From IMG/VR virus record IMGVR_UViG_3300006147_000007: a stretch of DNA of 64,000 nucleotides; one strand, given 5' to 3'. The DNA is from a virus. Lineage: Duplodnaviria; Heunggongvirae; Uroviricota; Caudoviricetes. Both the position numbers and the translations under genes were made by a program. Below the pieces are notes generated by a model, which made no database searches, was not told the origin of the DNA, and saw only the letters and a program-made list of their open reading frames with translations. Every line of letters starts with the position of its first letter. Positions within the stretch are counted from its first letter, which is position 1. This document shows, piece after piece, positions 4,480 to 41,802 of the stretch.

Positions 4480-6636
4480 TTGATAGTACAAAAAAGAGAC
4501 GGACGTAAAGTTAAATTTGATAAAGAGAAAATCAAAATAGCAGTCTTAAAAGCATTTATTGATGTTGATGGAGAAGAAACTCAATATGCAAAAGAAAAAG
4601 CTAGAGATATTGCTAACTATATAGAATTTTTAAATAAGAGTATGACCGTGGAAGAGATTCAGGATGAAGTAGTTAATAAATTGATGGCGAGTACAAGAAA
4701 AGATGTGGCTACTAAATATGTAGAATATAGATATAAGAGAAGACTGATTAGAGAAAGTAATACTACAGATAAAAGTATTATTGAGTTGATTGATGGTGTA
4801 AATGACTATTGGAATTCGGAAAATTCTAATAAAAGTGCATCTGTTGTGACTACTCAGAGAGATTATTTGGCAGGGATTACAAGTACAGATATTACAAGAA
4901 GATTTTTATTACCAGAAGATGTTGTACAAGCACATGACGAGGGAATTATCCACTTTCATGATGCAGATTATTTTGCTCAACATATGCATAATTGTTGTTT
5001 GATAAACCTTGATGATATGCTACAGAACGGAACAGTTATTAACGGAACACTAATTGAAAAACCTCATAGATTTTTAACAGCTATGACAATAGCAACGCAG
5101 ATTATTACAGCGGTTACTTCTTCTCAGTATGGTGGTGCAACAATTACACTGACACATTTAGCTCCATTTATTAGAGATAGTTATAAAAGGTATCTTAAAA
5201 AGTATCTGTCTTGGGGATGTTCAGAAGAAAAATCTATTGAATGGGCAAAGAAAGATTTACAGAAAGAGATTCAGGATGGTGTACAAACATTTCAGTACCA
5301 GTTAAATTCTATGACAAACACAAATGGGCAGTCTCCATTTTTGTCAGTTTTTATGTATCTTGGAGAAACTGAAGAGTACAAAGAAGAACTTTCTATGATT
5401 ATACAGGAAATGTTGTTACAAAGAATTGAAGGACTAAAGAATGAGGTTGGAATTTATATTACACCAGCATTTCCGAAGTTGTTATATGTATTGGAAGAAG
5501 ACAATATTCATGAAGATAGTAGATATTGGTATCTTACTGAACTTGCAGCAATGTGCACGGCTAAAAGATTAGTACCTGATTATATGTCAGAAAAGGTAAT
5601 GAAACAATTAAAAGATGGAAATATGTATCCTGTAATGGGCTGCAGATCTGCTTTGACAGTATGGCATGATAAAAATGATAAGCCAAAGTTCTATGGAAGA
5701 TTTAATCAAGGTGTTGTAACAATTAATTTAGTAGATTTGGCTCTTTCGTCCAATAAAGATTTTGATAAGTTTTGGGAACTTTTTGAAGAGCGAACAGAAT
5801 TATGTCATAGAGCTTTGAAATGTAGACATGAGAGATTAGAAGGAACATTATCCGATGCAGCACCTATTATGTGGCAATATGGAGCATTAGCGAGATTAGA
5901 TAAGCATAAACCAATAGATGAACTTCTACATGATGGCTACTCTACATTATCACTTGGATATGCAGGATTGTATGAATGTGTAAAGTATATGACTGGTAAA
6001 TCTCATACAGATAATGAAGAAGGAACAGAATTTGGGTTAAAGGTTATTCAAGCGTTGAATGAAAAGTGTAATCAGTGGAAGAAAGAAGAACATATTGATT
6101 ATAGCTTGTATGGGACTCCGATTGAATCCACTACATATAAATTTGCAAAATGCTTACAGAAGAGATTTGGAGTAACCGAGGGGATAACTGATAAAAACTA
6201 CATCACAAATTCTTATCATGTAAATGTCAGAGAGGAAATTAATCCGTTTGAAAAACTTGAAATAGAAGCCAAATTTCAAGAACTGAGTCCTGGAGGAGCC
6301 ATTTCTTATATCGAAAGTAGTAATATGAACGACAATATTCCTGCCTTATTGGAAGTTATCAAATTTATATATGAAAATATCATGTATGCAGAAATCAATA
6401 CAAAGTCAGATTATTGTCAGGTCTGTGGTTATAATGGAGAAATCCAGATTATAAAAGAGAATGATGAATTGCTTTGGGAATGTCCTAATTGCAAAAACCG
6501 TGATCAAGACAAAATGAATATTGCCAGACGTACATGCGGCTATATTGGAAGTCATTATTGGAACCAAGGCAGAACGCAGGAGATTGCTGAAAGATTCGTG
6601 CATTTGGATGACCATGAATACAAGGAGAGTGATTAA
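4480..6636 (+). CDS. nrdD: anaerobic ribonucleoside-triphosphate reductase (class III RNR)
   Basis: N-terminal ATP-cone (VQKRDGRKVKFDKEKIKIAV). C-terminal Zn ribbon CQVCGYNGE...CPNCKN and the glycine-radical motif RRTCGYIGS. TTG start after GGAGGAA. Confidence 0.9.
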   Translation: MIVQKRDGRKVKFDKEKIKIAVLKAFIDVDGEETQYAKEKARDIANYIEFLNKSMTVEEIQDEVVNKLMASTRKDVATKYVEYRYKRRLIRESNTTDKSIIELIDGVNDYWNSENSNKSASVVTTQRDYLAGITSTDITRRFLLPEDVVQAHDEGIIHFHDADYFAQHMHNCCLINLDDMLQNGTVINGTLIEKPHRFLTAMTIATQIITAVTSSQYGGATITLTHLAPFIRDSYKRYLKKYLSWGCSEEKSIEWAKKDLQKEIQDGVQTFQYQLNSMTNTNGQSPFLSVFMYLGETEEYKEELSMIIQEMLLQRIEGLKNEVGIYITPAFPKLLYVLEEDNIHEDSRYWYLTELAAMCTAKRLVPDYMSEKVMKQLKDGNMYPVMGCRSALTVWHDKNDKPKFYGRFNQGVVTINLVDLALSSNKDFDKFWELFEERTELCHRALKCRHERLEGTLSDAAPIMWQYGALARLDKHKPIDELLHDGYSTLSLGYAGLYECVKYMTGKSHTDNEEGTEFGLKVIQALNEKCNQWKKEEHIDYSLYGTPIESTTYKFAKCLQKRFGVTEGITDKNYITNSYHVNVREEINPFEKLEIEAKFQELSPGGAISYIESSNMNDNIPALLEVIKFIYENIMYAEINTKSDYCQVCGYNGEIQIIKENDELLWECPNCKNRDQDKMNIARRTCGYIGSHYWNQGRTQEIAERFVHLDDHEYKESD

Positions 6637-10375: not shown

Positions 10376-12019
10376 ATGAATAATGATTATAAGTTAGTAC
10401 GTATGTTACTACGAGTTAGTTCTAACCAACAATTAGAAGCGGATGGCGATTTATCTGTACAACGTCAATTAGTAAAAGAATATATTGAATCACATGAAAA
10501 TTGGAAATTAGATAACAAGGAATATTTCGAGGGCAGTAAAAGTGGGTATAAGAATACTGTTGTTGAGCGAGATGTGTTACAACAGGCATTACAAGACGCA
10601 ATAAATCAAGAATACGATATTCTTGTTGTTTATAAAGATGATAGAATAGGGCGTAGGATGTGGGAGATTGGTGCTTATGTAATGCAACTAAAAAGTTATA
10701 ATGTTGACATTTATACAGTTAAGGATGGATGTATTTCACCAGAAACAGATGATATTATGGGGCAAATGATGTTAGCCTTAAGATATGGTAATGCACAAAA
10801 GAGTAGTTCTGATACTGGAATGAGAGTAAAAGATACTGCACAAAAGTTAGTCCAAAAGGGTAAATTTATGGGTGGTAAAGCTCCATATGGATATGAATTG
10901 GTTTTTTCAGGCGAAATTAGCAAACATGGACGAGCATTGAAAAAATTGCAAATAGTTGATGAAAAGGCAGATGTAGTAAAATATATTTATAATTTATCGT
11001 TAACAAAAGAATATGGATCATATAAAATTGCAGAAGTATTAAATTCAAATGACGATTATATAAAACTGGCACCAAATGATTTTTGGAAATCAGGTACGAT
11101 TACTAGTATATTAACCAATCCTGTTTACGCTGGCTATGTTGCTTATAAACGCAGAGAGCGTATTAATGGCAAATATTTAAGGCTTAGTGATGATGAATGG
11201 ATTAAGTCTGAAAACCGTAATGAAAACATTGCTATTATTGATGAAGATATATGGAATGAAGTACAACGTAAACGGAAATTGCGCAGTAAAGAGTATCAAA
11301 AAAGTTTTGAAGAAAATGAATACAATTTGATTAAAAAAAATGATGGGTTTCTTCCATTTATAGATGTTGCTTATTGTGGATATTGTGGTACAAAATTAAC
11401 AAATAATTCACAGTACAATTATTGGACAATAAAAGGGACAGGTGAAAAACGCGCAAGTAGAATTGGAGTCTACAGATGTCAAATGGCTCAACAAGGTATC
11501 CCTCATGATAAAACATGCAGATTTAGGGCTGATAAAATAGAAAATATTATTTTTGAAGATATATGTAAATACTTAGACTCTTTATTAGATAATATTGATT
11601 TATCCCAAAACGTAAAGAATATTAAAGATAATGAATGTCAGAAATTAAAGAAGAATTTAGATAAGAATAAAAGAGAGTTGGTTAAAATAAAAAATGGAAT
11701 TGATATAATGGAAGAACATATGCCTGAAGCTATGATGGGTAATTATATATTATCTATAGAAGAATTAGCTCATGCCATTAAAAAACATAAAGCAAACTTA
11801 GAAGACACTGAGAAAAAGATAAAAAATATTCAAGAACAAATAGATGATATCAATAATTCCAACAAAGAAATGGATGATATAAAAAATAATATACCAAAGT
11901 GGAAAGAAATATTTATGGGAACTGATAAACATACACAACGTGTTATAGTTAACAAAATAATAGATAAAGTTATTATGAAAAAAGATGAAATTCATATTAT
12001 ATATAAAATTAAAATATGA
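10376..12019 (+). CDS. large serine recombinase (phage integrase type)
   Basis: N-terminal resolvase catalytic domain (LLRVSSNQQLE...), an internal recombinase domain, and a Zn ribbon (CGYCGTKL...CQMAQ...C) followed by a coiled-coil. 547 aa. Confidence 0.8.
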   Translation: MNNDYKLVRMLLRVSSNQQLEADGDLSVQRQLVKEYIESHENWKLDNKEYFEGSKSGYKNTVVERDVLQQALQDAINQEYDILVVYKDDRIGRRMWEIGAYVMQLKSYNVDIYTVKDGCISPETDDIMGQMMLALRYGNAQKSSSDTGMRVKDTAQKLVQKGKFMGGKAPYGYELVFSGEISKHGRALKKLQIVDEKADVVKYIYNLSLTKEYGSYKIAEVLNSNDDYIKLAPNDFWKSGTITSILTNPVYAGYVAYKRRERINGKYLRLSDDEWIKSENRNENIAIIDEDIWNEVQRKRKLRSKEYQKSFEENEYNLIKKNDGFLPFIDVAYCGYCGTKLTNNSQYNYWTIKGTGEKRASRIGVYRCQMAQQGIPHDKTCRFRADKIENIIFEDICKYLDSLLDNIDLSQNVKNIKDNECQKLKKNLDKNKRELVKIKNGIDIMEEHMPEAMMGNYILSIEELAHAIKKHKANLEDTEKKIKNIQEQIDDINNSNKEMDDIKNNIPKWKEIFMGTDKHTQRVIVNKIIDKVIMKKDEIHIIYKIKI

Positions 12020-13789: not shown

Positions 13790-15379
13790 TTATTTCAATA
13801 TCACTTTCGCAACGCTATCTGAAATAATCTGAATCACCCTGTATGAATTTTTTGTATCTTCATCACATGCTGTGGCAATACCTTCTGAATTACAGCAACA
13901 GTATCCATTAATTTTAAGGCTTCCATCCTGCCAGACAGAAAGTACTCCAAGCATTCCAACAGGCGACCATTCTGGACGTTCAAAACGAGATACATATGTT
14001 TGTGAAGAATCATAATCAGGATTTAACTTAGGACGCATTTCATATACTATATCACCATTCTCATCAACAACTTCTTGCTCAACAACTTCTCTATTTTCAT
14101 TCTCCTGCAATTCAGTTTTAGGAACTTCTTCGTATATTGTACGGTTGAAATCATCTTTAAGGTACATTCCGTTCCATGTATCACAGTCTCCATTTCCTAA
14201 TACAAATGGTTCACCAGACACAATGCCTAAAATATAATTTTCATTTGACGTTGCAATGGATATCTTATCCCCGTTTATTGTTACAAATTTACCAACCCTG
14301 TCTTCTTTGTCAGGGTTTCTGTCTTCCCATTCAAAAAATTCTGCATAGTCTGCTGTTGTAGATGATGTAATGGTTGATTGTGCTTTTACCACTCCATCGT
14401 AATCAACGGAAAATGCATTATGTCTTATAAGAATAGCATTACTAGAATTGTATGAGCCGTTTCCTATGGAGAACAAAACATCTTTCTCTACATTGCAAGT
14501 ACCACAAGCAAAATTATTCTCTCCTTTTGCTATTGCTCTATATCCAGAAGCATGAGAACCTGTACCTATGGCTTTTGTGTATCGACCTTCCGCATGAGAA
14601 CCTGTACCTCTGGCGTCTGTGTAAATACCTTCCGCATGAGAAAAATCTCCTAATGCTTCTGTGAAATCACCTTCCGCATGAGCTGCTTCTGCATTAGCTT
14701 TTGTGCATAGACCTTCCGCATGGGAATAATTACCACTAGCTTCAACATTACGACCAAAGGCAAAACTTTTTTCCCCAATAGCAGTACCCTCTTTTCTTCC
14801 AAAACTGACAGAATCATCACCATAAATGCTCTTTATGGCGTATGTATCACTAATCTTATTGCCATGACTATCTTTTGTAGCTTTTACAGCACTTGCTACA
14901 CTCTTTTCGCTATCCGCAGTATTATCAACATTGTCCAGTCCGATATCTTTTGGGGAAATTGTAACATTTCCGGTTCTAAATTCACTTTCAGCAGAGCCTT
15001 TTATTCCGCTTACACCACTGGCAACAGGGGAAGTGGAAGAGCTGTCATCATTATTGTCACTGTTATCACCGCCCGTTGTGCCATTATTTGTACCATTTAT
15101 GCCATATATTGTTACACTGTAATTGTCTGCTGCCGAAGGAGCAATGGAAAATATAATATTGACAGTATTATTATCTACAATATTGTAATCTGTAAAAATC
15201 AACCCATCTTCATCATTCATCTCAAACAGAATATCTTCTGTATCCAAATTATGTTTAATGGTAAAAACAGTTTTTACTCCGTCACCTGTTATAGTTGTGG
15301 CATATTTCTTTAAGGATTGCCCATTTGAACCGCCATCTACACGGACAATCTCACTTTGTTTTGTCTTATATAAAATCAT
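13790..15379 (-). CDS. tail fibre or adhesin with YadA-head-like (S)HAEG repeats
   Basis: Repeats NYSHAEGLCTKA / AHAEGDFTEA / FSHAEGIYTDA / GSHAEGRYTKA / GSHASGYRAIA. N-terminal conserved phage-fibre region. Confidence 0.5.
   Translation of the reverse strand: MILYKTKQSEIVRVDGGSNGQSLKKYATTITGDGVKTVFTIKHNLDTEDILFEMNDEDGLIFTDYNIVDNNTVNIIFSIAPSAADNYSVTIYGINGTNNGTTGGDNSDNNDDSSSTSPVASGVSGIKGSAESEFRTGNVTISPKDIGLDNVDNTADSEKSVASAVKATKDSHGNKISDTYAIKSIYGDDSVSFGRKEGTAIGEKSFAFGRNVEASGNYSHAEGLCTKANAEAAHAEGDFTEALGDFSHAEGIYTDARGTGSHAEGRYTKAIGTGSHASGYRAIAKGENNFACGTCNVEKDVLFSIGNGSYNSSNAILIRHNAFSVDYDGVVKAQSTITSSTTADYAEFFEWEDRNPDKEDRVGKFVTINGDKISIATSNENYILGIVSGEPFVLGNGDCDTWNGMYLKDDFNRTIYEEVPKTELQENENREVVEQEVVDENGDIVYEMRPKLNPDYDSSQTYVSRFERPEWSPVGMLGVLSVWQDGSLKINGYCCCNSEGIATACDEDTKNSYRVIQIISDSVAKVILK
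14540..14735. repeat. degenerate tandem repeats of about 39 nt inside the fibre gene (encode the xGxxSHAEGxxT units)
   Basis: CCTTCCGCATGAG/G recurs about five times at roughly 39-42-nt spacing on the plus strand. Confidence 0.5.
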
Positions 15380-17155: not shown

Positions 17156-20100
17156 CTATGACAGCCCATGCTTCTGCAATATTTCTTCTAATTTCTCAAA
17201 TTTGCCTGAAAGTTCATTTACTTGCTTTTTTAGGTTCTTAATTTCTGTATCTTTTTCATGTATTGTATTTGTTTGTTCTGTAACCATTTCATACAATGCC
17301 TGAATTGATGCTACTATAGGAGCTTCAAATTCATCATATTTCAAGCCCCATGATAATTTAGAATCGTCAACAGAATCATTAAAATATTCCTCTGCTCCAT
17401 CATCAGTAATAACAGAAGCTCCATATAATGCTAAATCACCCATGTCAAGGTCTTTTGCTGCCTGCGCTACATGTTGTGCCCCAAACCCCATATGAATACG
17501 TTTGGAAGTGCTATTCTTAAAAGTATATTCAATTGGTTTAAGTGTATTGATAAAATTTAATGACTTCTGTTTGTTCATAATACTGATAACATCTTTTTGC
17601 TTAAGATCAGAAGTGGAGTTAATATTTGTTGCATGTATTTCATTCCATGGGAATGTTATTGTGCCTAATGCGCTTTTTTCACATGCCTGCTCAATTCCAT
17701 TCTCATCATGGGTATCTGCACGGAAAACCAGACGTTTATTAGGAACACCACCGCTGCTTGTGGAACCGTATTCACCAAAAACGGAAAAGTAATAGATTTC
17801 ATCATCACCGTTATATACTTTACAATGAAAAGCTTTGTTATCAGAGCCTGTTGAGCTACTTTCGCAATACAGGGCATCTCCTTGTCCGTAATTTGTAACC
17901 CGTAATGCTGGAGATGTATCGCTATGCCCAGTAATAACAACACTATCATCTATAGTATTAACACCCAATAAGTATTCTCTGTCACCTCGTTCTGAGTTCA
18001 TGCCTGCTTCGCTTCGGGCATAAATGCCGCACTGAGAAATATCAGTATATCCCAAGTTGTCAACAAACCCATTACTGTCGTATAAACCAAATGACCACTT
18101 GCCATCATGCATGAAAGAGCAAAAACTTTCATTGATATTAGAAGTTTTCTTATAAGAGGCAATCTGCATATTGTTTGGATCTGATTTTAAATAAATGCAG
18201 GAAGATCCGTTGTTGTTCATTGAATAGATTAAGTCATCTTTAATTTTCCAACCACCAATTTCTGCCTTCTTGATCCGAAGCAATTCATTCTCATCTAAAT
18301 TATAGCTGAGTATTTCATTGTTGCTTTCATCATATACTTCTATAAACTTTTCTTCTAAATTGATGCACATTCCACTCTCACGAGGAGAATAATCTTCTGA
18401 CTGTAATATACTTGTAATAATTCCTGCTGTAATCTTTAATTTTCCGTTTCCGTCAGAATTGAAATCGAATATATTCTTTTCACCATCATTAATAACCATA
18501 GATGGTTTTGCTGGATCAAGCATAATGTGTTTCCCTGTTTCGCTACCAACCAATACATAACCAGAAAATTTCCCCGTACCATCAATAACTAAGCCATCAG
18601 TAGGAGAGTAGTGCATATAAATATGCTTATTTCCATTTACTATCTTTGAAATAGAGAATGATGGAGTTCTTGCATCAATTTCAATAGTATTATCATTACA
18701 GACAATATGAAATCCGTTATCATCAATAGTATAAGTGCCAGATTTATTATAGATTTTCAACAACTCCGACATAATCAGTCTTGCAATTAATACCTCTGCA
18801 TTTAATCCATAAGCCCATTTATATTGTTTTTCGTCATCATCATAATAATAGATTTTCCCAAGTGCTAAACGGGTATGTTTCCAGCTATCAGAAGTGAAAC
18901 ATAGAAGATTATTAATCATGCGAATTTGTTCTCTATCGTATGCATTTTCGATATCATTCCATACACGCCCGGTTATCCCATATCGGTCAATCACAAACTC
19001 CTGATTATCAGCATTCGTAATCATGGTATTGGCAACATCCAGCCCGGCTTCTTTCATGATAGCAAATTCCTGGTTTGTCATGTATCCTTTCTCAGCCTGT
19101 CTTGATACGGAATTAAAGTTTGTTGCAATGGAAGCTGCCTGTTGGAACAGGCTTTTCAAATCTGTCATTGGATTATTGGACTTTGTAACATCAGAAAATT
19201 CCACACTGATATGTGATAAATCAGAATAATCGAATGTAATGGAAATCAGGCGCAGTTTGTAGATATCATTATCGACCTGTATGCGAATCCAGTTGCCAAG
19301 GGTAAAGTCGTCCCACAATGGTTTAAATTCCTGCATGGTTAGGAGGTTGCCGATTGTTGTATTGATGGAATAGCTGATTTCACATGCTCTTTCCAATTCT
19401 TCCGTGGCTCTCTTAATCAATCCTTCTACATTCTTAATTATTTCTTCGTATTTTACTCCATCCCCAATATAATTATCATTTCTATAAGTATCTTCCCTTT
19501 TGAAAGAGCATAACTCAATCCAGAGGTCATCTCTGTAAGAACTATTATTATAATTCTTTAGAAAATTTTCCATATTGCATATTGATTTAATTTCTTTTAT
19601 TCTATTTTCATATGAATCTCTTTCACTGCTAATAGAGTTTATCCTGCTTTCAAGATAAGCCATTCTCTCATCAAGTATTACAATACGGTCGTAATATTTT
19701 TTCAGCAAATCATTATAAATACCGGATTGATTTCCATTAGGATTGATATACTTTAACGTGCCAGCGTTATCAGAAGATATCTGTTCACTGTGCTTTGCAA
19801 TAATCTGACTGCATGATTCGTATGCATCACGGAAAGATTTCAGCCGGTTATAACAATATTTTGTATAATGGATAGGAGATAATTTTTGTGGGTCGTTTTC
19901 TCCATCATAACTTGCAGATACCCGTGGCTCAAAAGAAATAACATCATCTGTCATCTCACTTTTTTCAAGTGACATTTCAAGTTGCTGTTTTAAATACATA
20001 AAATAGTCTGTTGTAAAAACTGAATTATCAGCAGAATTATTATAATAAATACACCATCCATCTTTTACAGAAAGCGAGACAGAAGCAGTGTATTCATCAT

Positions 20101-21409
20101 TCTGTGTTGTATCATCCTTATATGCATCTTTTAGCCATATATGGGAAGAAAAAGAAATGTTTGAATTTGATGAGCCTGTTAAAGATAACTCAATATCATA
20201 TTCATTTGGCATAATCTGTTTTGCAAATGTTTTTATAGACCTGAGTACACTATCATAAGTTTGATTCTCAGAAGATTTACAAGCATATGATATTTTTCCT
20301 CCGGCACCAAATAATTCTTCGTGTATTGACCTTGCTGTTGTATTAGACGAAGCCAAACTTGGCATCATTTCTGACTGGTAATACAATATTTTATCAACGC
20401 ATTCGTTATATCTGTCCCATAAATTATTATATTCATTCTGATAAGAATTTACTAACGTATCATGTTCTATTAATGCCTTCTGGAGAGGTTCTGACATCTG
20501 TGATGTTTGGTCTGGTGAAAATATCCACATATAATTTCCATCCATCAGTCTGTCACCAATTAAATTAGTGATAATGTCATCAGCACCTTCAATCTTAAAG
20601 CAGTTCTTTACAGAATCTTTATCTCCTGTTAAAGTAACAGATTCAACAAGATTCTGATTATCAATAAATACTCCTGTGTCTTTCCCATAACCATATGTAA
20701 TATAATCAGAAGAGTGACAGTGCTGGCATACACCATCTTTTACCTTTCTATAGTTTCCGGCTGTAATACAAGATTGTCTGTTACAGTGGTCTTTTAGGTC
20801 ATAACAATTAATTTCCCGTTTGAAATTATCAAAAATAAAAATACATTCAAGTTCCTCAGCTACAGTCTGTAAGAAATCGTATACCGTTTGGTCATTACAA
20901 GAAAAAGTTTTTTGTATACAGGCAACAGAAGCGTCTATGTGTCCAATGGTATAGTGTGGCATAGATTTAAATATTCTATGCAGCAATGAGCCTTCTGTAT
21001 TATTTTGATCATATATTACAGTTTTGACATAATCTTCTCTGGCAATGTCATCTTCCGTATTGATTTCCAGTGTAACTTTTGTCTGTGAAGTTTCTGCTTC
21101 CCCAAGGGATATTCCTGTAACTTGCTTATAAGCACATTCTTCAACTGTAAGCGGAGTTGCAATTTCAAAATACCCTTTTCCTTCCACAAGAATAATCTGT
21201 ATATCATTAACCTTATACCAAAATGGATTTATTTCCCCATTGTTATTCTTATATATTTTAAAACTGACTTCATCATTCTGATTTAATCGCATTACAGCAT
21301 GCAAATCTTCAATTGGGTATAATTCTCCCTGTATATTTAATGTCCTGTCACAGATAAATACTTTATCCTGTTCAACAGAACCATCTAAATTTACAATAAA
21401 TTGACTCAT
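17156..21409 (-). CDS. tail-associated lysin / host-specificity protein (Tal) with a C-terminal peptidase-S74 intramolecular chaperone domain
   Basis: 1417 aa, directly after Dit. C-terminus SDLKQKDVIS...LKPIEYTFKN...RIHMGFGAQHVAQAAKDL matches the S74 autoproteolytic chaperone signature. Start moved to MSQFIVNLDG. Confidence 0.55.
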   Translation of the reverse strand: MSQFIVNLDGSVEQDKVFICDRTLNIQGELYPIEDLHAVMRLNQNDEVSFKIYKNNNGEINPFWYKVNDIQIILVEGKGYFEIATPLTVEECAYKQVTGISLGEAETSQTKVTLEINTEDDIAREDYVKTVIYDQNNTEGSLLHRIFKSMPHYTIGHIDASVACIQKTFSCNDQTVYDFLQTVAEELECIFIFDNFKREINCYDLKDHCNRQSCITAGNYRKVKDGVCQHCHSSDYITYGYGKDTGVFIDNQNLVESVTLTGDKDSVKNCFKIEGADDIITNLIGDRLMDGNYMWIFSPDQTSQMSEPLQKALIEHDTLVNSYQNEYNNLWDRYNECVDKILYYQSEMMPSLASSNTTARSIHEELFGAGGKISYACKSSENQTYDSVLRSIKTFAKQIMPNEYDIELSLTGSSNSNISFSSHIWLKDAYKDDTTQNDEYTASVSLSVKDGWCIYYNNSADNSVFTTDYFMYLKQQLEMSLEKSEMTDDVISFEPRVSASYDGENDPQKLSPIHYTKYCYNRLKSFRDAYESCSQIIAKHSEQISSDNAGTLKYINPNGNQSGIYNDLLKKYYDRIVILDERMAYLESRINSISSERDSYENRIKEIKSICNMENFLKNYNNSSYRDDLWIELCSFKREDTYRNDNYIGDGVKYEEIIKNVEGLIKRATEELERACEISYSINTTIGNLLTMQEFKPLWDDFTLGNWIRIQVDNDIYKLRLISITFDYSDLSHISVEFSDVTKSNNPMTDLKSLFQQAASIATNFNSVSRQAEKGYMTNQEFAIMKEAGLDVANTMITNADNQEFVIDRYGITGRVWNDIENAYDREQIRMINNLLCFTSDSWKHTRLALGKIYYYDDDEKQYKWAYGLNAEVLIARLIMSELLKIYNKSGTYTIDDNGFHIVCNDNTIEIDARTPSFSISKIVNGNKHIYMHYSPTDGLVIDGTGKFSGYVLVGSETGKHIMLDPAKPSMVINDGEKNIFDFNSDGNGKLKITAGIITSILQSEDYSPRESGMCINLEEKFIEVYDESNNEILSYNLDENELLRIKKAEIGGWKIKDDLIYSMNNNGSSCIYLKSDPNNMQIASYKKTSNINESFCSFMHDGKWSFGLYDSNGFVDNLGYTDISQCGIYARSEAGMNSERGDREYLLGVNTIDDSVVITGHSDTSPALRVTNYGQGDALYCESSSTGSDNKAFHCKVYNGDDEIYYFSVFGEYGSTSSGGVPNKRLVFRADTHDENGIEQACEKSALGTITFPWNEIHATNINSTSDLKQKDVISIMNKQKSLNFINTLKPIEYTFKNSTSKRIHMGFGAQHVAQAAKDLDMGDLALYGASVITDDGAEEYFNDSVDDSKLSWGLKYDEFEAPIVASIQALYEMVTEQTNTIHEKDTEIKNLKKQVNELSGKFEKLEEILQKHGLS

Positions 21410-21410
21410 C

Positions 21411-22277
21411 TTATGGCAGCACACTCCTTATTGTTCTATAATGAAAAGACAGGTTGCAACTACCACCTGTCACAGTAAATACATTTTTTCTTGTTTCGTT
21501 TAATTCTGAAAAATTTATCAATCTCGGATATTTGAAATTAAAGTCATTGTTAATATTTTCTCTTGTATGTACAGTATTTTTATTTGTTGCTATCATATGG
21601 TTAGCAATTGTAATATGTTCACCATTTTTACAGTTATTTATCTGTGTTGTGTATTGAATAGTGGGAGAGTAGAGTGTATCCAAATTATTTTTTATCTGTA
21701 ACTTTTTAGCATCAGAAGTCATTAAAATATCAATTTCATCGAAATATAAAGCACCTGTTTTATCACTATCGTTATAGATAGTAAATGAGCTTCCATTACT
21801 ACATGATGCTTCAAATGTTTGTATATCACTGTATCCAAATGGAGCATCGCAGGTAACATCTATCTGTGCCCCAACAATTTTTCCGGTCACACGTATCCAT
21901 TGTAATTTATTCTGAGTACGAAAGAATGTATTTTCGTATCCTTCGTAACCACCTTGAAAAAATCGTAGTAATTTATATCCATCTGTTCGTACCAGCCATC
22001 TAAGTAAAAAAGCACAGTTCTGTTGAGATAATTCATAATTCCTGTCTTTATTAATACTACAATCAAATTTTCCGATTTGGAAACTTGTTGTTAATGGTGT
22101 TTCATATTTGCTTCCATGAAAATTCCACGAATATGAATTCACTGGCTTAGAGGTAGTAAATGTAATTTCATTTCCTGCCATGCCGACACCATCATTGGAA
22201 AAGCCATCAAAGTTTGCTATATAATATCCGAGGTCAGATGACTTGATTCCATTAAATTCAAAAATGTCTGCATACAT
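21411..22277 (-). CDS. distal tail protein (Dit)-like
   Basis: 288 aa, immediately upstream of Tal; N-terminus MYADIFEFNGIKSSDLGYYI typical of siphovirus Dit proteins. Confidence 0.45.
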   Translation of the reverse strand: MYADIFEFNGIKSSDLGYYIANFDGFSNDGVGMAGNEITFTTSKPVNSYSWNFHGSKYETPLTTSFQIGKFDCSINKDRNYELSQQNCAFLLRWLVRTDGYKLLRFFQGGYEGYENTFFRTQNKLQWIRVTGKIVGAQIDVTCDAPFGYSDIQTFEASCSNGSSFTIYNDSDKTGALYFDEIDILMTSDAKKLQIKNNLDTLYSPTIQYTTQINNCKNGEHITIANHMIATNKNTVHTRENINNDFNFKYPRLINFSELNETRKNVFTVTGGSCNLSFHYRTIRSVLP

Positions 22278-22300
22278 CTATAATACCTCCAATTAATTTT

Positions 22301-22561
22301 TTATATTCCAAAGATTCTTCTCGTCTTTAGTCTTAAAAGCATCATTCTATATTTCCATCTGTTTTTAATACCAGTAATTTTTAGTTTGTCAAGTTCAACA
22401 TACTTCTCGTACAATTTATCTATTATACTGGAATAACGTTCAATTTCTGATAATATATTTTCACTGATTTCTTCGTTGTTTATTTCATGCAATCTATTAT
22501 TTTCATCCATTAATCTTTTATTATCGTTTACCAATAGTTCAATTTTTCTCTTTTTTGTCAT
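22301..22561 (-). CDS. hypothetical coiled-coil protein
   Basis: 86-aa ORF between the HslV-like gene and Dit. Confidence 0.3.
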   Translation of the reverse strand: MTKKRKIELLVNDNKRLMDENNRLHEINNEEISENILSEIERYSSIIDKLYEKYVELDKLKITGIKNRWKYRMMLLRLKTRRIFGI

Positions 22562-22579
22562 ATACTCACTCCGTTTTTT

Positions 22580-22837
22580 TCATTTAGATAATTTTTTGCA
22601 TAGAAAAAGAGCAGGAGAATATGTCTCTTGCTCTACATTAAATTTACAATTACTATTTTTTAAATAATTTGTCGTAGAAATATCTATTTCTTTAGTAATG
22701 CGCCAAATGTAATTATCAGAAATTACATTTAGCACTTGATATTTATTATTTTCCCAATTATCACTTGTGAAAGCAATACTTATATTAGAAAACGACAATC
22801 CTTTTGGAATGAAATTATTTTTATTTTTTGATGACAT
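22580..22837 (-). CDS. hypothetical protein
   Basis: 85-aa ORF overlapping the previous gene by 17 nt. Confidence 0.3.
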   Translation of the reverse strand: MSSKNKNNFIPKGLSFSNISIAFTSDNWENNKYQVLNVISDNYIWRITKEIDISTTNYLKNSNCKFNVEQETYSPALFLCKKLSK

Positions 22838-23480
22838 CCTTTAATCTAATCCTTTCAAATACAACATTATTATTAATTTCAGAATCTATTATTGAACATC
22901 TTTCGAATACTTCCATTAAAATATTTTTGTATTGTCGAATTGTTGTAAAATCGTATAGTCCTATATCATGATATTGATTAGTTAATTTTTCAAATTCTTC
23001 TTTGTGTTCAATTTTTCCAGCACTTATACATTTGTATGGAAAATCCCATTTTCTTTTTGCAACAAATATACCATTTGGTTGATTGTCATTTGGTGACAAA
23101 CTAAACGTTGTGCCTTCAAATTCGTTTCCATTATAACCACATACAATACTCATTATTTCATATGTTTTAGAATTTGATTTATCGTCATGAATCATTTTCA
23201 ATTCATTAAATTTCTTTGTTATTATATATACAAACTCTTTGTATGACATAATTATATCATCGTTTAGTTTTGTTAATCCTTTTTCATTAGAGTAATTACA
23301 AAATCCCTCAAATAACTCATAATTATCTTTCACTCCACCTGTACAACCAAAAATGATTTGACTATTTAATTTTACTAATTTATTACAACTATCAATCATT
23401 GTTCCATCTGGTTTTATTCCTCTTGTTTCAGCAGCAACAATAATAAAATTTTCTGTAACAACAGCCTGTACTAAACTCAT
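22821..23480 (-). CDS. HslV / 20S-proteasome-beta-like Ntn-hydrolase (N-terminal Ser after Met removal)
   Basis: [20 protein letters not shown]...[27 protein letters not shown] aligns with HslV TTIVSVRRNGHVVIAGDGQ...[30 protein letters not shown]. Start set at the ATG five nt after GGAGGAAG, not the upstream TTG. Confidence 0.5.
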   Translation of the reverse strand: [219 protein letters not shown]

Positions 23481-23628
23481 ATGTTCTTCCTCCAATCATC
23501 AGTATATTATAAATTTAATTATATACCAATAATTGACAAATATCTACAAGAACGTATATTCTGAATTTTTACTTTGGTTATTGTTCATTTATTGATAAGA
23601 GGGCAGCATTACACCGCCCTCCAAGTAA

Positions 23629-26600
23629 CTAAAACTTTTTCAGAACATTTTGGAACGGATTTTTAATATCACCCAATACGCATTCCGACATCCTCTGTTT
23701 ATTTCTTGGCTGGTTTAGCTGTTGGAACATAGATTCCATATCTACTATTCCGCTTCCATCTAAATGTACATTAATATCTCCCGTATTAACAGAAGTATTA
23801 TTCGTGTTATTGACAGGGACACTTTCATACTTTGGCATCATGTCAGTATACTCAAACGGCATACCAAGATGTGCCATTAATATCCGTTCCTGCTCTGGCG
23901 TAATCTTTGAACCAACAGGTATATACCTGTCTGCAATCTTCTTTACTGCTTTTGTCTCTTCTTTTGTGAGGACAGCTTCACCTTTCTGTATGGTAATTAT
24001 TCCGTCATCACCGTTATCCTTTGCAGCTTTATTTAATGTACTTGCAATACCACCGTCTGCAAATCCAGCGTTCTTAAAGGCATTACGAATTTTAACGGAT
24101 TCATCATAGGTAATGTTCTTTTTATCCTTAAGGCTGATACCAAGCATTTCGGCAAGTTCCGCTTCCTTTGCTTTGGTCAGATAACCTTTCTTATTGTATT
24201 TCTTATCAAGGTACTGCAATAGTTTGTCCGTTGCAATCCGCATGGATTCTTCCGTATTCTTTGGTTTGCGGAGGTTCTTTTTCAGAAAGGAATCAATTTC
24301 CGCATCCTTTCCAACCCTGTTATTATCAGATATGGTTTCCTTGCCTGCTGTTGCAGTATTGTTTGTGGTATCTGCAACATTATGTTCTGATGACGTTCCG
24401 TTTTGTACAGCCTGTACCAGATTATCCTTACTTTTTTCAACACTTTCACCGAATGCTTCTTTTTCATCCTGCAAAACCTTGTTTAAGTCGCTGGTTGTAT
24501 CCGTGACACGTTTTACTTCGTAGGTTAAATCGTCTGCTGCGGAAGTTGTATCATCAATGCTTGTGTCAAACTTATTGTTTACATTCGTGCCTGTCTTGTC
24601 ATATGTGGATTCATAGGAATTACCGCCATAATCAATACTGCTGTTGGTATGTGTCCCGTCCGGGTTATATGTGGTAATAATGGACAGGGCATCTCCGAGT
24701 CCGAGTTCATCCAGTGCCCTTGCAACAGCTTCCGGGTTATCCGTAACCATCTGTAACAGACTGTCCATGGAACCGTTTATGTCTTTTCTCAGGTCATTCA
24801 TGATTCTTTCCCAGAAATCCTCTACTTCGTCAGCAAGGGTATCAAGCATGTCGGTCTGGTCATCATACCACTTATCATACTCCGTGTCCCTTAGTTCTTC
24901 CTGTGCTTCCTCAAGGCTGACCTGTAACTTTTGTAGTTTTGCCCTTGCTTCCTCACTGTGGTCACCTGATAATGCTGCAATCTGTTTCTGTATTAAAGCA
25001 ATATTCTTTGTCTGCTTTGCAACCTTTTTTTGGTATTCGTATAAATCTTTCTCTGTTGCCAGTGCATTCTTTTTCTTTTCAATCAGCTCATTAATGGAAT
25101 CAACCTGTACTTGTAATGCATTCTCTACAAGGTCAAGGATGGCATCTTTCTCATCTGCAATGGCTTTTGTGCTGTCCCTTATGATATCAAGCTGCTCCTC
25201 ACGCTTTGCCATAAATTCCTCTTCGTTGTATCCGTCTGTACCATCTGCATGTTTTTCATACAGTTTATCCAATTCCTTCTGTGCATTCTCAATAACCTTC
25301 TTATGATTATCCATGTTTGAGAATCGGAGCGATATGGTGGCAAACCCTTCATCCGTCAGACCTCCTGATTCCTTGCTGGTCAGTTCCTCATGTGAGAGCA
25401 TGTCAACCAAAAAGTCAAGATGGCTCTTTGTGGCATCAAGCTGCGCTGCCATAAGTGAGAATTTCTTAAAGTCTAATTCATTGATGGCTTTTTGGAATTC
25501 AATGGTCTGCTGTGTGCAGGAGTAAAGGGACTGGTCAATGGATTCCATGTCATTTTTCCATGCATACCATTCCTTAGAACCGTATTCAAACTTCTTCCCG
25601 GCTTCCTCCAGTTCCGAACGTTCCTTTAACAGCTTCTCTTTTGTGCCTTCATTAATCTTCATCATCCCATCATACAATGACTTGGAAACAGACTGCCCAG
25701 CGGCTTCCAGTGTGGCAATTTCAGACTGTATGGTTGAAATCCTTGCGTCATTCAGACCTGTCTTATTGTCATATTCCGCTTTGATATTGTCATACATCTT
25801 TTGATAGGATTCATTGACTTTTTCCTGTTTCTCAGCCTGTAAGCGTTTCTGCTCTGTGGCATCGCCTTCCAGTTCAGCAATCTTAATCAGTTTATCGTAC
25901 TGCTTATTCAGGTATTTCAGGCTTTCGGCTTCATATTTGTTCTTATCTTTTGCGGAAACAGCATTGGTTTCATACTGCTGGTTCAGGTTGTATTTTGCCT
26001 CTGCTTCATCAGCATAGTTTTGCGCCCGTTCTATGCGTTTCTCACGCATGTTTGTTTCATTCTGCTCTTTGGCAAGTTTCTTATCACGTAAAACATCTGC
26101 TACAAAATCAACACTGTTATTGTAGTTAAGAAGCTTTTGATAGGTTGCCGTATTGTGCTTTCTGACTTTCTTCATAAGGGCAGAAGGGATTTCCTTACCC
26201 TGCTTAATCAGTTTTTTGATTTTATTCTTCTCTGATTTGCTAAGCCCTTTTGTATTATTTACGGCAGACTTTGCAGTTTTCCCGCTCTTATTCCTTTGTG
26301 TTTTAGATTCCTGATAGTACTTTTTATATGCCTCGTTGTCTGACTTGTAGGTATTGATTTCCTTATTCAGAATCTTATGTTTCTCTTTTGCGGTTGTGGC
26401 ATTGGCGTATCTTGCTTCCTGATAGGTGCGCTTTCTCTCGTTGTCCTCAAGCTTCAAGTCTAACTTCTGTTTTGAGAGGTCTTTGATTTCTGCTTTGAGT
26501 TCCTGTACCGCTTTTTTAGCATCTTTTACTTTATCAATGTAATCCTGATATTTGTTAATCTGCTTTGCAGTCTTTTCACCGTATTCCCTGATTAATTCTG

Positions 26601-37024: not shown

Positions 37025-39001
37025 TTATGAAATCCGTACACTTATACGGCATTTACCGATGTTCTTGAAACTGGCGAATAATCCGGCTCCTGCACCGATA
37101 GTTCCCAAAGGAGTTAAAACAGATACAAGTTTTGTCGCACCCTGAACTATACTATTCAACAATTTTACAAATGACTTTAAATCATCTGATTTAATCATAC
37201 TGTTGACAAGTTCCGTCCAACTATTGGATAACTCATTAAGAGAACCTGTTAAATTTGTAGCTGATTTGTTTGCTTCTTCTAAAGCGCTCCCTGAACCTTC
37301 AGAATAATCAATAAGCATTTTATCAAACATATTTATGTTCTGAAGAAGCGCAGATAATTTGTTAGCCTGATATTTACCACCAACATTTGTTAAAATTTCT
37401 GCTCTTAACGGGTCATCTTCATCTAGCTGATTAAATGTTTTTGCCAAATCCCTTATTATATTAATGGGATTACGGAGTTTTTCTGTTCCATTGACAAATT
37501 CCGTCATAGAAGCATTAGCCTTAGTTAGTGTATTAGTGATTTTATCTGATGTTACATTTTGTAAATTGATAAGCAGAGATTTAATACTATTACCCACTTC
37601 TGAACCACCAGATTTAGTAACTGATTCCATAGTACCAATCATTGCTGATAAATCTTCAATAGCTACATTATAACTGGAGGCAACAGTTCCAGCTTCGCTC
37701 ATGGCGATTGCCATATCCTCTAATGCTACGCTGTTGCGATTTGAGATACTGTTCTGACCATCTAATACTTCATTTATCTTACTTGCTTCACCATTGAACT
37801 TATATGCAGCATTTGTTGCTATAACATATTTATCTGCAATATCTTGTGCCATATCACCAGCAGACTGTGCAAGTAATGACTGTTCTGCCATTGCTTTTCC
37901 TTTTTCTCCATAGAATCCTGATTGTGACATGCTTTGAACACCAGATAAATAATCACTGGCAACTCTACCATATTTACTTGCAGTATTATATGATTCTTCT
38001 CCTAATTGTTTTAATTCTTTGGTAGTTAAATCCGATGTTTTACTAACTTCGGTTAAAATATCATCAAGTTCTTTAATTTCTGAAATTGAATTTTTTATCT
38101 GCGAAACTACAAGCATAACACTAGAACTTACAGAAAGCCATTGTGAAAATCCTTGCGCAGCTTCTTTAAATTGATTGGTTAGTGAAGCACCTAATCTGTT
38201 AATTCCACGCATAGAATTTTCAGTTTCCTTAAAGCCTCTGGAAATCTGCTCAAATTCCATTTTAGTCATTTGTACATTCAAATTACGGAGGCTTGCTATA
38301 TATGCTTCGTTTTTGGATATAGCATCTTTAGTAGCATTACTATTTTTTTGATTCCATGCTTCAATCGCGTTTGCCTTTGTTAATCTTTGATGTATACTTA
38401 TATATCCCTTTGCAGAAGATTGTAATTTTGTGTATTCATTACTTGATTCAGCTAATTCTTTCTGCAATTTATCATTAAGCGAAATAATTTCCTGATAATT
38501 GCTTTTGTCAAAGGGCTGATTAACCCTTGTTTTTAATGCTTCAAGTGCTGATGAAACTTTTGAGGTTTTTTCGGTAATTTGATCTTCTGTTAATCCAAGA
38601 CTTCTATATTGTCCTTCTAATTTTGTAAGCTGAGTAGAGTAATCATTCTTAATTCCACCATTAGATAAAAGTTGAATTTTGTTGATTTGTTCAGTTACTT
38701 TTTTTATTTCATTATTAATTTTACTGCTTGATTTACCAATTCCGTCTGTGATATTTTTGGCAATAGTATTTCCAATTTGTTGCCCAGTTTTTGTATCAAA
38801 GTTTATATTAGAAATATTTATTTTCTGATTAAGTATTCCCTCTAACTGTTTCACAATATTGGATATACTTTTCGGATCAAGTTCAGCTTGAATTTTTAAT
38901 TTATCAAGTTGTCCTTGGATTTTTCCTATATCACTATTAATATTTCCTTTAGATTTAGCTTCGTCTAATTTAGCTTGGAGTTCTATTAAAAACTCATCCA
39001 T
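37025..39001 (-). CDS. tape measure protein, TP901-family core (658 aa; the second tape-measure-like gene in this window)
   Basis: ALEDMAIAMSEAGTVASSYNVAIEDLSAMIGTMESV matches the TP901 tape-measure core; coiled-coil N-terminus; C-terminal hydrophobic LTPLGTIGAGAGLFA. Confidence 0.6.
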   Translation of the reverse strand: MDEFLIELQAKLDEAKSKGNINSDIGKIQGQLDKLKIQAELDPKSISNIVKQLEGILNQKINISNINFDTKTGQQIGNTIAKNITDGIGKSSSKINNEIKKVTEQINKIQLLSNGGIKNDYSTQLTKLEGQYRSLGLTEDQITEKTSKVSSALEALKTRVNQPFDKSNYQEIISLNDKLQKELAESSNEYTKLQSSAKGYISIHQRLTKANAIEAWNQKNSNATKDAISKNEAYIASLRNLNVQMTKMEFEQISRGFKETENSMRGINRLGASLTNQFKEAAQGFSQWLSVSSSVMLVVSQIKNSISEIKELDDILTEVSKTSDLTTKELKQLGEESYNTASKYGRVASDYLSGVQSMSQSGFYGEKGKAMAEQSLLAQSAGDMAQDIADKYVIATNAAYKFNGEASKINEVLDGQNSISNRNSVALEDMAIAMSEAGTVASSYNVAIEDLSAMIGTMESVTKSGGSEVGNSIKSLLINLQNVTSDKITNTLTKANASMTEFVNGTEKLRNPINIIRDLAKTFNQLDEDDPLRAEILTNVGGKYQANKLSALLQNINMFDKMLIDYSEGSGSALEEANKSATNLTGSLNELSNSWTELVNSMIKSDDLKSFVKLLNSIVQGATKLVSVLTPLGTIGAGAGLFASFKNIGKCRISVRIS

Positions 39002-40062: not shown

Positions 40063-41802
40063 TTATGTCAAAGTATTACTTTCCATACTATCAATTCGTT
40101 GTTCCAATTTATTTAATCGTTCAATAAGTTTAGTATTCTGTTTCTCTAAATTTCTAATTCGTTCATTTTTATCCTGCGCATTTCTCCAAAGAATAGGAAT
40201 AAACTCCTCATAACGCAAACAATAATCATATTCTCCAGTTTCTTCTTGTCCAACAACAGTCATTACTGGTTCATTATTTTCATCAAATATAATATTTCCT
40301 TCTTCGTCAGTGGCTTGCTCGATAATATCTCTCATTTGAGGTGATTTAATAAACGGCGCAAAATCTTTAGAATCAATACCCAATTCGTTTAATATTTCTT
40401 CAATTTGTTGGGCAACCATTCCAAAATGTTTTCTGCCTGATTCGTTATCTTTCAAACGATAAGAAAACACGTCTATTTTATCAACTAATTTCTCTATTAA
40501 AACAGTATCTAAATGTTCAATATCTTTTTTCTTATTTCTATCTGAGATAACAGATACAGCAGTGGCAAGATATAAAGAGTTATAGTAATAACCACTACTG
40601 CCAAGTACTGTTTTATTTGCTGTAATCGGATAAACAACTGCATTCACACCTGTATAAGCAAACCACAATCCATATCTTCTGTTTGAACAATTAATGGTCA
40701 AATGATTACCTGCACCATCAGTGGTGTTTGCGGTTACTAGGTAATTTTCTATAGCCCAACCACCTAATATTCTTTTTAAATATGTCTTTGCAATATTTTT
40801 GTCATTTTCATCACAAATAGCCTTTGTGGCAGTTGCAGCATTTCCAGTACAACTACCACTTGAACCAGTTACAGAAGTTTGTAAAGGATGCACATGGTCT
40901 TCTCTTGCATATTTTACAGAAGTACCGACAGATGCAGTTCCATTTGCTTTTGGAGCTGTGGATGCGGGAGTATAAGTAGTGTTTGCATCGTCTCTCCACG
41001 CAGGATTACCATTAGCATCTGTTTTCCATACTTTGTTTACCTGTCCGCTTCCTGAAGACACATATCCTTCACTGGATGATGAATTTGCCTTCCATGTGTT
41101 ATTATCTGTTATTTTAAAGCCACTGTCATTAGTAAGTTCACTTGTCTTTGTTGGGATGGTTGGTTTATTACTCAAATCATTATAAGAACCACTAAATGCA
41201 ACTGTTTTTAAATCAGAGAAAAATTTCATTATTTTTCCTAATATAATAGAAAGTTTTTCTCCTGGTTGTATATTTGTTCGTTCTGTAGATTCTGTAAATG
41301 TCTGAATTGAATTTGATGAAAGTATAGATTCCCAATCATCACTCCATTTATTATAAAGGAGATTGTACATTCGTATATAAATTCCATCATATCTTTGTTG
41401 CAGAAAACTAACTTCACCACCACCATTATTATCACCCACACTAATTCTCAAATACCCTCCAGCTATTTTACACGCACCTATTAAATACAATTTAAACCAC
41501 GGAGAAGACATGCTTATATTTCCGCTGTTATAATAATATATTGTGTTAGATTCTAATCCTGCAATAAAATCTTCTATTGTCGTATGTTCTAATATATAAT
41601 CATCTGTAAGTATTTTTACAGTCCCACAATCAGCATATTCCAATTCATTCCAATGTAATACACCATCCCCTATTTTATACTTTCCATATTTATCGGAAGA
41701 GTATGCCAATTGTCCAGCTAATAGGACAGGATTATTAATTTCCCAATTTTCTTCTATATCATATGCTTGTTTATGTTTTGCTTTTACAATTGTTTCTTCC
41801 AT
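40063..41802 (-). CDS. tail fibre with a hyaluronidase-type N-terminal motif and a C-terminal peptidase-S74 chaperone domain
   Basis: N-terminus [38 protein letters not shown]-terminus [56 protein letters not shown] fits the S74 consensus. Confidence 0.6.

Follow-up and report, generated by a model that had tools for sequence, protein, structure and literature searches.

The gene described here lies on a stretch of 64,000 nucleotides (nt), referred to as the window, from a virus of the class Caudoviricetes (IMG/VR virus record IMGVR_UViG_3300006147_000007). It is encoded on the minus strand and specifies PSM, a protein of 219 amino acids (aa) with a proteasome fold and an N-terminal serine. 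A first-pass annotation, made from the DNA sequence, had placed an HslV/proteasome-beta-like hydrolase here, between the tape measure protein (TMP) and the distal tail protein Dit, and had offered it as a tail or TMP processing protease or a virion-delivered effector. The open reading frame (ORF) proved to be real, with a Shine-Dalgarno sequence 5 nt before its ATG, and its placement was confirmed by the flanking genes. The features of the locus are as follows.

22821 to 23480, minus strand: PSM gene, proteasome-fold N-terminal-serine hydrolase, 219 aa plus stop codon (Pfam, profiles, AlphaFold 2 model, Foldseek)
Within PSM: catalytic candidates Ser2 (Ser1 after Met removal), Glu18, Lys34, Gly45/Gly48 and Asp199, from the family alignment
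23486 to 23493, minus strand: Shine-Dalgarno sequence of PSM, GGAGGAAG, 5 nt upstream of the ATG
22580 to 22837, minus strand: partner ORF, 85 aa, translationally coupled, its ATG overlapping the last 17 nt of PSM
23518 to 23552, minus strand: predicted promoter-leader core TTCTTGTAGATATTTGTCAATTATTGGTATATAAT, read as TAGATA-17-TATAAT or as an extended -10 element TGGTATATA
23598 to 23622, minus strand: GC-rich 10-bp hairpin, terminator-like with a weak U-tract, starting 6 nt after the TMP stop codon
23629 to 30843, minus strand: TMP-like ORF, 2404 aa, the C-terminal tape-measure piece, which clusters with the TMP-like ORFs of relatives
22301 to 22561, minus strand: coiled-coil ORF, 86 aa, directly before Dit, part of the context and outside the cassette
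21411 to 22277, minus strand: Dit-like distal tail protein (Pfam DUF6558 and DUF6558_C)
22300 to 23600, no strand: low-GC block (0.24-0.26; adjacent TMP 0.39-0.45, Dit/Tal 0.29-0.35)
22622 to 24575, no strand: segment without nucleotide homology to the nearest relative, L030, covering the C-terminal approximately 315 codons of TMP, PSM and most of the partner

The start codon of PSM is the ATG at 23478-23480, and the product begins Met-Ser-Leu-Val. Pfam family PF00227 (Proteasome) matched the protein with an E value of 3e-6 and a score of 27.5 bits, against a gathering threshold of 22.4; the first-pass annotation had made its proposal depend on such a profile match. The match spans aa 6-69 only, which is the N-terminal third of the protein. 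A word-index search of 5.8 billion proteins recovered 17 relatives at 38-100% identity. In their alignment M1, S2, L3, V4, K34, G45, T47, G48, D52 and N53 were invariant, and position 18 was either Asp or Glu. The family profile, when compared to PDB sequences, matched exclusively proteasome subunits (mostly beta) and HslV, with E values of approximately 1e-3. Residue n of the query corresponded to residue n-1 of mature HslV in that search, and hhalign against E. coli HslV returned the same register with 82% probability. The equivalent positions are Ser2 and Thr1, Glu18 and Asp17, Lys34 and Lys33, and Gly45 and the oxyanion glycine. The blocks earlier aligned with HslV (IIVAAETRG with VVIAGDGQ, and a second pair) coincided with the profile-aligned blocks, and the serine of the Met-Ser start had rightly been taken as the counterpart of Thr1. 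PHROGs and NCBIfam contained no match for PSM (NCBIfam at E values up to 10), and a single-sequence phmmer search with PSM against the PDB returned noise only.

The AlphaFold 2 (AF2) model of PSM had a pLDDT of 92.2 and a pTM of 0.89. It forms an alpha-beta-beta-alpha sandwich with its elements in the order S1-S4, H1-H2, S5-S8, H3-H4, and departs from this canonical layout only in that H1 is short and an extra beta-hairpin (aa 61-71) lies between it and H2. Every one of the top 50 Foldseek matches in the PDB was a 20S subunit or HslV. In structure comparison the fold was nearer to 20S beta and Anbu, and HslV was more distant. PSM is a proteasome/HslV-fold N-terminal nucleophile (Ntn) hydrolase (Pfam PF00227, MEROPS T1) with an N-terminal Ser in the Thr1 position.

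Catalytic positions were counted in 105 full-length aligned family members. Ser2 and Lys34 were each kept in 102, Asp/Glu18 and Gly48 in all 105, and Gly45 in 93, so that the Asp17, Lys33 and oxyanion-glycine equivalents singled out in the earlier annotation are kept across the family. At the end of H4, the site of Asp166 and Ser169 in the proteasome family, Asp199 (93/105) and Asn203 (96/105) were also kept; position 153, the equivalent of Ser129, was variable (S, N, T or V). The catalytic residues were retained in 93-105 of the 105 members across 30-86% identity. Between lineages PSM was 41-48% identical, which is above the neighboring TMP (23-30%) and Dit (30-32%). Judged from this conservation, strong purifying selection acts on the catalytic apparatus. 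Because of that selection an active enzyme would be expected, and PSM is very probably an active proteasome-family Ser1 hydrolase.

We performed an exhaustive hidden Markov model search with the PSM profile against 1.84 billion cluster representatives and obtained 148 clusters, defined at 50% identity, at E ≤ 1e-3. Their members were mostly approximately 185-225 aa long, and nearly all matched from residue 1. Canonical HslV appears not to be among the 148 clusters, as judged by the number of hits, their length and the match from residue 1 rather than by names. Met-Ser without a propeptide is the N-terminus of the family: 93 of 107 full-length members begin with MS, most of the remainder have a mis-called start with MS[LIVMF][VI] further in, and an MT start was not found in any. 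In a few members the N-terminal Ser is missing (MG... starts) or the sequence is truncated. No family member carries a name in any source, and tblastn of PSM against 50,697 deposited GenBank phage genomes gave no match. The known hosts of the carriers are Lachnospiraceae. In the window and in 12 further contexts whose neighboring genes carry Pfam annotation, no AAA+ or HslU-like gene was found next to PSM, and PADLOC had no model matching PSM, its partner or the remote homologues. Of the earlier designation as HslV/proteasome-beta-like, the proteasome-type fold stands and membership of the HslV family proper does not. An HslV orthologue was ruled out by the lack of an NCBIfam HslV match, the lack of co-occurrence with HslU, and a fold nearer to 20S beta/Anbu.

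The order of TMP-like ORF, PSM, Dit and large tail protein is kept in many IMG/VR contigs at approximately 25-30% TMP and Dit identity, a synteny that at first glance speaks for a tail role. Relatives were then re-collected with Dit as the seed instead of PSM, and PSM was counted within 10 kb. A PSM homologue was present in 9 of the 79 loci and missing from the other 70, which bears out the earlier remark that this gene is not a standard siphovirus component. The nearest relative, L030, has a Dit that is 84% identical and a TMP approximately 79% identical at the nucleotide level, and it has no PSM. Its slot holds a 187-aa predicted membrane protein and, after it, an 88-aa homologue of the ORF of 86 aa that precedes Dit. 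Most related phages likewise have a small ORF directly before Dit, so of the three extra genes originally counted between TMP and Dit two are extra and the pre-Dit ORF is not. In a survey of 90 TMP-to-Dit slots, the default was one ORF of approximately 100-130 aa before Dit within a gap of 270-450 bp, and about half of the slots had such a single small ORF between TMP and Dit. A minority held PSM with a small ORF, DUF3990 with a 71-aa ORF, a PemK/MazF-like toxin, membrane proteins or larger sets. Pfam and PADLOC identified DUF3990 (PDC-M13B/M10A) and PemK among these cargos, together with GIY-YIG/NUMOD homing endonucleases that split TMP.

In a species complex with TMP identity above 90%, carriers and non-carriers of PSM had 100% identical sequence over the final 250 residues of TMP (L022/L024 compared to L040; L025 compared to L051). 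TMP C-terminal identity was 82.6% between loci with the same cargo and 79.8% between loci with different cargos, and thus did not co-vary with cargo. When carriers were compared to non-carriers by blastn, homology ended either with the TMP stop codon or within the leader, 137 nt further on, and returned 20-60 nt past the stop codon of the partner ORF. Because homology breaks and resumes at these points, the exchanged unit is PSM together with its partner. Presence/absence polymorphism with sharp boundaries between collinear genomes, the pattern by which a moron is recognized, was found here. The PSM cassette is, with high confidence, dispensable and swappable cargo.

The partner is translationally coupled to PSM in at least 8 lineages. 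Its start lay from -35 to +21 nt relative to the PSM stop codon in the window, L007/L109, L110, the L010 group, L023, L004, L002 and L112. A short motif, I-x-[FV]-[TS]-x-[DNP]-x-[WF], reads IAFTSDNW in the window and was found by regular expression in 7 of 10 lineages, or in 8 of 10 when the L002 ORF was extended upstream of its called start; the chance level was 0.03 in shuffles and 0.9% in background small ORFs. A k-mer search with the 85-aa partner found only the partner itself, an orphan, and an AF2 model of the partner alone was uninformative (pLDDT 45). We lean toward the view that the enzyme and the partner are a functional pair.

Upstream of PSM, conserved blocks occur in the order TTCTTGTAGATATTTGTCAATTATTGGTATATAAT, a spacer of approximately 20 nt, AATACTGATGATTGGAGG, and the ATG of PSM. 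The core occurs once in the window, and the block was found upstream of PSM in more than 10 lineages irrespective of the surrounding genes. An exact 16-mer, ATTATTGGTATATAAT, was present in one copy per locus and always directly upstream of slot cargo; the cargos behind it were PSM, DUF3990, PemK, k18, k30 and k53. The leader precedes at least six unrelated cargo genes, with membrane-protein genes among the cargos in sister phages, and the sister-phage loci with it are L032, L033, L039, L040, L047, L048, L051, L052 and L056. Accessory genes appear to share it as a handle for expression and exchange, and recombination during cargo swap may use it at the 5' end. The hairpin after the TMP stop codon had a predicted dG of -18.4 kcal/mol and a z score of -3.2, and its equivalent in L010 had a z score of -4.55; the promoter/terminator scan had missed this hairpin since its U-tract is too weak. 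A separate sequence, TTGGTATATAAT, was found with at most 1 mismatch at 8 sites in the window (for example at 11886, 16988, 22214, 29578, 42254, 49408 and 56355) against 1.74 expected. None of 100 shuffles reached 8 sites, and the sequence is probably an extended -10 promoter type of the phage or its host.

Close homologues of PSM elsewhere were 49-64% identical. One adjoins an integrase, one is near ArdA and HNH genes, and one follows a 2071-aa leucine-rich repeat protein. One cassette lies in an accessory island between two TMP pieces with a helix-turn-helix gene and a PemK toxin, and another (L110) is upstream of Peptidase_M78 and a GmrSD_N gene. The GmrSD_N gene of L110 (3007 to 3975) is 1.7 kb downstream of the PSM cassette; the window has an 84% identical copy, also similar to PADLOC NsnA, at 43575 to 44546 (minus strand), a different site from its PSM. 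Remote family members sit between tail-fiber and holin/lysin genes. At L029, 6997 to 7842 (minus strand), the remote homologue is beside an opposite-strand PADLOC Aga_Nuclease match (E 4e-76), and the pair is found between baseplate or fiber genes and a holin gene.

Taken together, these data put at an even chance the reading that PSM is the enzyme half of a mobile moron, composed of a promoter-leader, a proteasome-fold hydrolase and a coupled small partner, that serves in phage-host or phage-phage conflict. A conflict or defense role as such, proposed because of position, shared promoter and the company of neighboring genes, we place just short of even. On this reading the cassette does not serve the phage's own tail assembly. 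By analogy with morons inside late operons (Tab, HK97 gp15), the cassette would most likely be a prophage-borne defense or competition module.

A possible mechanism can be modeled on 20S beta and HslV. Host methionine aminopeptidase would remove Met1 and expose Ser1; removal of Met before Ser by this enzyme is established and efficient. The free Ser1 hydroxyl would then attack a peptide bond, with the Ser1 alpha-amine, Lys33 and Asp/Glu17 acting as a proton relay and the Gly45/Gly48 backbone as the oxyanion hole. The small partner may bind the enzyme as an inhibitor, pseudo-substrate or adaptor and so gate proteolysis. In 20S and HslV, the oligomeric state decides activity. A more specific version is doubtful but conceivable: a new prophage-borne immunity or abortive-infection module in which a proteasome-fold Ser protease is restrained by a pseudo-substrate partner with the motif I-x-F-T-x-D-x-W until a phage invades. 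Its target would then be that phage and, as the repeated placement near TMP could hint, possibly the tape measure that it ejects.

Several observations weigh against the moron and conflict reading. The argument for defense is one of guilt by association, and the company includes the anti-restriction gene ArdA, so that the role may be either defense or counter-defense. In five or six lineages the cassette is directly after or between TMP-like ORFs; this recurrent neighborhood may mark a permissive slot, but it could instead reflect a TMP-related target, such as one in competing phages. The predicted promoter is a consensus match in AT-rich DNA, where the scan as a whole, with 26 found against 20.1 expected from shuffles, did not exceed chance, and its support comes from conservation alone. 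No terminator was found after the partner, and read-through with the tail operon may also occur. The partner ORFs are short and divergent, and those of L005 and L026 lack the motif. The remote members L027 and L029 have no comparable coupled ORF; in L009 and L028 no ORF follows PSM.

The first-pass proposal of a tail or TMP maturation protease, which would trim the giant TMP or a tail-tip protein, is now very unlikely. PSM does directly follow a TMP-like ORF in the window, in L002/L003/L008, in L005/L006 and in the L010 group, and in L004 and L007/L109 it lies in an island between TMP pieces. No minus-strand terminator with a U-tract separates PSM from the tail genes, and the TMPs of lambda (gpH) and T5 (pb2) are known to be processed at the C-terminus by unidentified proteases. 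However, a protease needed for TMP maturation cannot be optional, and this idea fails given identical TMP C-termini with and without PSM. The 70 relatives without the gene, its replacement by other cargo in L030, the lack of co-variation between TMP C-termini and cargo, the close homologues far from any tail gene, and the lack of a match in the deposited phage genomes all stand against it, and the presence/absence data largely refute it. An effector packaged in the virion and ejected with TMP into the next host would suit a small soluble protein encoded next to TMP and tail-tip genes. It is nonetheless highly improbable: no signal or fusion ties PSM to virion proteins, the gene is accessory in distribution, the cassette also occurs outside structural modules, and ring-forming proteasome homologues would presumably not fit through the tail lumen.

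A counter-defense or host-takeover protease is unlikely. In that role the enzyme, alone or docked on an AAA+ unfoldase of the host, would degrade immune or regulatory proteins of the host, and the partner would be its adaptor. PSM is accessory cargo, like other anti-defense genes, one close homologue lies in the region with ArdA and HNH genes, and its own predicted sigma-A-like promoter would free expression from the late operon. Fuchs et al. saw no dedicated AAA+ partner for such proteins and proposed housekeeping factors (PMC8665760). Against this role, the other slot cargos are toxin- or defense-like (DUF3990 with PADLOC PDC-M13, PemK) rather than known anti-defense genes, and a place deep in the late operon is atypical of early anti-defense genes. 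A connectase-like transpeptidase or ligase, acting on the partner motif or joining separately encoded TMP pieces, would make use of the partner's short conserved motif and of the fact that TMP comes in pieces in this clade. The PSM model, however, has H1 (aa 50-56) and H2 (aa 80-99) and no element between strands 35-37 and 42-48, its fold is nearer to 20S beta, and phages with a split TMP mostly lack PSM; we consider such an activity highly improbable as well. Least credible is a decaying or catalytically dead remnant. The few members with MG... starts or truncations would fit it, but the retention of catalytic residues described above, the better conservation of PSM than of TMP and Dit between lineages, and the 148 clusters do not.

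Other genes in the window provide further context for the phage. A large serine recombinase is encoded at 10376 to 12019 (plus strand), and the phage is probably temperate. The window also encodes an anaerobic ribonucleotide reductase, NrdD (4480 to 6636, plus strand), and an SPFH/Band 7 protein (2530 to 3474, plus strand). A TnpB-like gene (OrfB_IS605 with a Cas12f1-like TNB domain; 61054 to 62454, minus strand) adjoins two tRNA genes, and these tRNAs, at 62558 to 62651 and 63909 to 63991 (both minus strand), were the only Rfam matches in the window. Self-cleaving chaperone domains were found in tail fiber/spike proteins, namely Peptidase_G2 (529 aa) and Peptidase_S74 (1422 aa and 579 aa).

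13790 to 15379, minus strand: tail fiber/spike gene with a self-cleaving domain
17156 to 21424, minus strand: tail fiber/spike gene with a self-cleaving domain
40063 to 41802, minus strand: tail fiber/spike gene with a self-cleaving domain

The tape measure of the window is encoded in pieces, a 658-aa PhageMin_Tail ORF (37025 to 39001, minus strand) and the 2404-aa ORF, with approximately 6 kb of unrelated genes between them. The 2404-aa ORF had no Pfam family above threshold and no PHROG match. An opposite-strand Zn-ribbon gene (30882 to 31427, plus strand) lies between the pieces and is in the same place in relatives. Directly downstream of the N-terminal piece, approximately 970 nt (36053 to 37024) contain no ORF of 45 aa or more and no Rfam match at the gathering threshold. 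TMP is also in pieces in L004, L007/L109 and L010-L025, and other relatives have GIY-YIG/NUMOD or CapR/DUF4379-type endonuclease-like genes between TMP fragments (L102, 4408 to 5772; L066, 7164 to 8282). In the translation of the 2404-aa ORF a C-terminal-type motif appears twice, as GEELIVRDGRWFTV...GDIVFN and as GDDGIITIQKGEAVLTKEE (approximately aa 1190-1230 and 2260-2290). A Lys/Ser-rich linker comes after the first of these, suggesting that two tape-measure modules were fused in tandem.

If the immunity-module reading is correct, large Lachnospiraceae siphophages would have in their tail operon an exchange slot for defense cargos, defined by the promoter-leader. A defense or counter-defense device of this kind would extend the known means of phage-bacterium conflict by a proteasome-type protease and point to a new hotspot in which to find such genes in gut Lachnospiraceae phages. 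The results also correct a tempting annotation as a tail protease.

Among known systems, HslV (ClpQ) shares with PSM the Ntn alpha-beta-beta-alpha fold, a nucleophile bared by removal of the initiator Met, and the register of Asp17, Lys33 and Gly45. PSM differs in having no NCBIfam match and no HslU, in its 219 aa, in its short H1 and the hairpin at aa 61-71, and in the size of the family, 148 clusters compared to thousands of HslV sequences. The B. subtilis enzyme CodW is HslV-like and serine-dependent, with its essential Ser in an N-terminal extension (PMC7468587); PSM is likewise a candidate serine enzyme, but its Ser occupies the Thr1 position itself. Compared to 20S beta and Anbu, identity is 9-19%, and PSM has no propeptide, Ser in place of Thr and no alpha partner, and is a single phage-borne gene. 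Connectase has no H1/H2 helix pair, and a two-helix insertion between S3 and S4 lies over its active site (PMC8665760), whereas the PSM model keeps H1/H2 and has no such insertion.

Two-gene toxin-antitoxin and abortive-infection cassettes resemble the PSM cassette in pairing an enzyme with a small coupled partner that is swapped as a unit, and the same slot also holds the DUF3990 pair and the PemK/MazF-like toxin. The PSM cassette differs from them in having no PADLOC match, and to our knowledge no toxin class with a proteasome-fold effector has been described. Tab/anti-Tab of JBD26, and HK97 gp15 as cited with it, are dispensable morons in a late operon that aid the lysogen against phages, and Tab targets the TMP C-terminus of invading phages (PMC10884400). 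Unlike PSM, Tab and HK97 gp15 are small non-enzymatic proteins. We know of no proteasome-fold enzyme described as a late-operon moron.

Fuchs, Alva and Lupas (2021) described 22 new proteasome-like families, including the phage-borne PPH, AAH, CPH, PMI-4 and DAH and five Firmicute clusters, FC1-FC5; these were without propeptide, AAA+ partner or informative genomic context, and no function was assigned (PMC8665760). PSM resembles them as an uncharacterized homologue with no propeptide or AAA+ neighbor, carried by Caudovirales and prophages and expanded in Firmicutes. PPH differs from PSM in its length of approximately 140 aa and its lack of H2; the text of that study calls PPH exclusive to Proteobacteria, yet its Table 1 marks other phyla (PMC8665760). 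BFVD also holds phage proteins of the PSM fold, at 8-15% identity. PSM may correspond to AAH, CPH or one of the FC clusters, and to their description it adds a coupled partner, a leader and cassette exchange. A phage proteasome homologue as such had thus already been catalogued, and what is new here is the coupled partner, the promoter-leader and the exchange of the cassette. These give the uncharacterized phage proteasome homologues a first concrete context and three handles: a strictly Ser1 enzyme that would need only Met removal, a co-inherited partner bearing a motif, and a leader that appears to drive interchangeable cargos.

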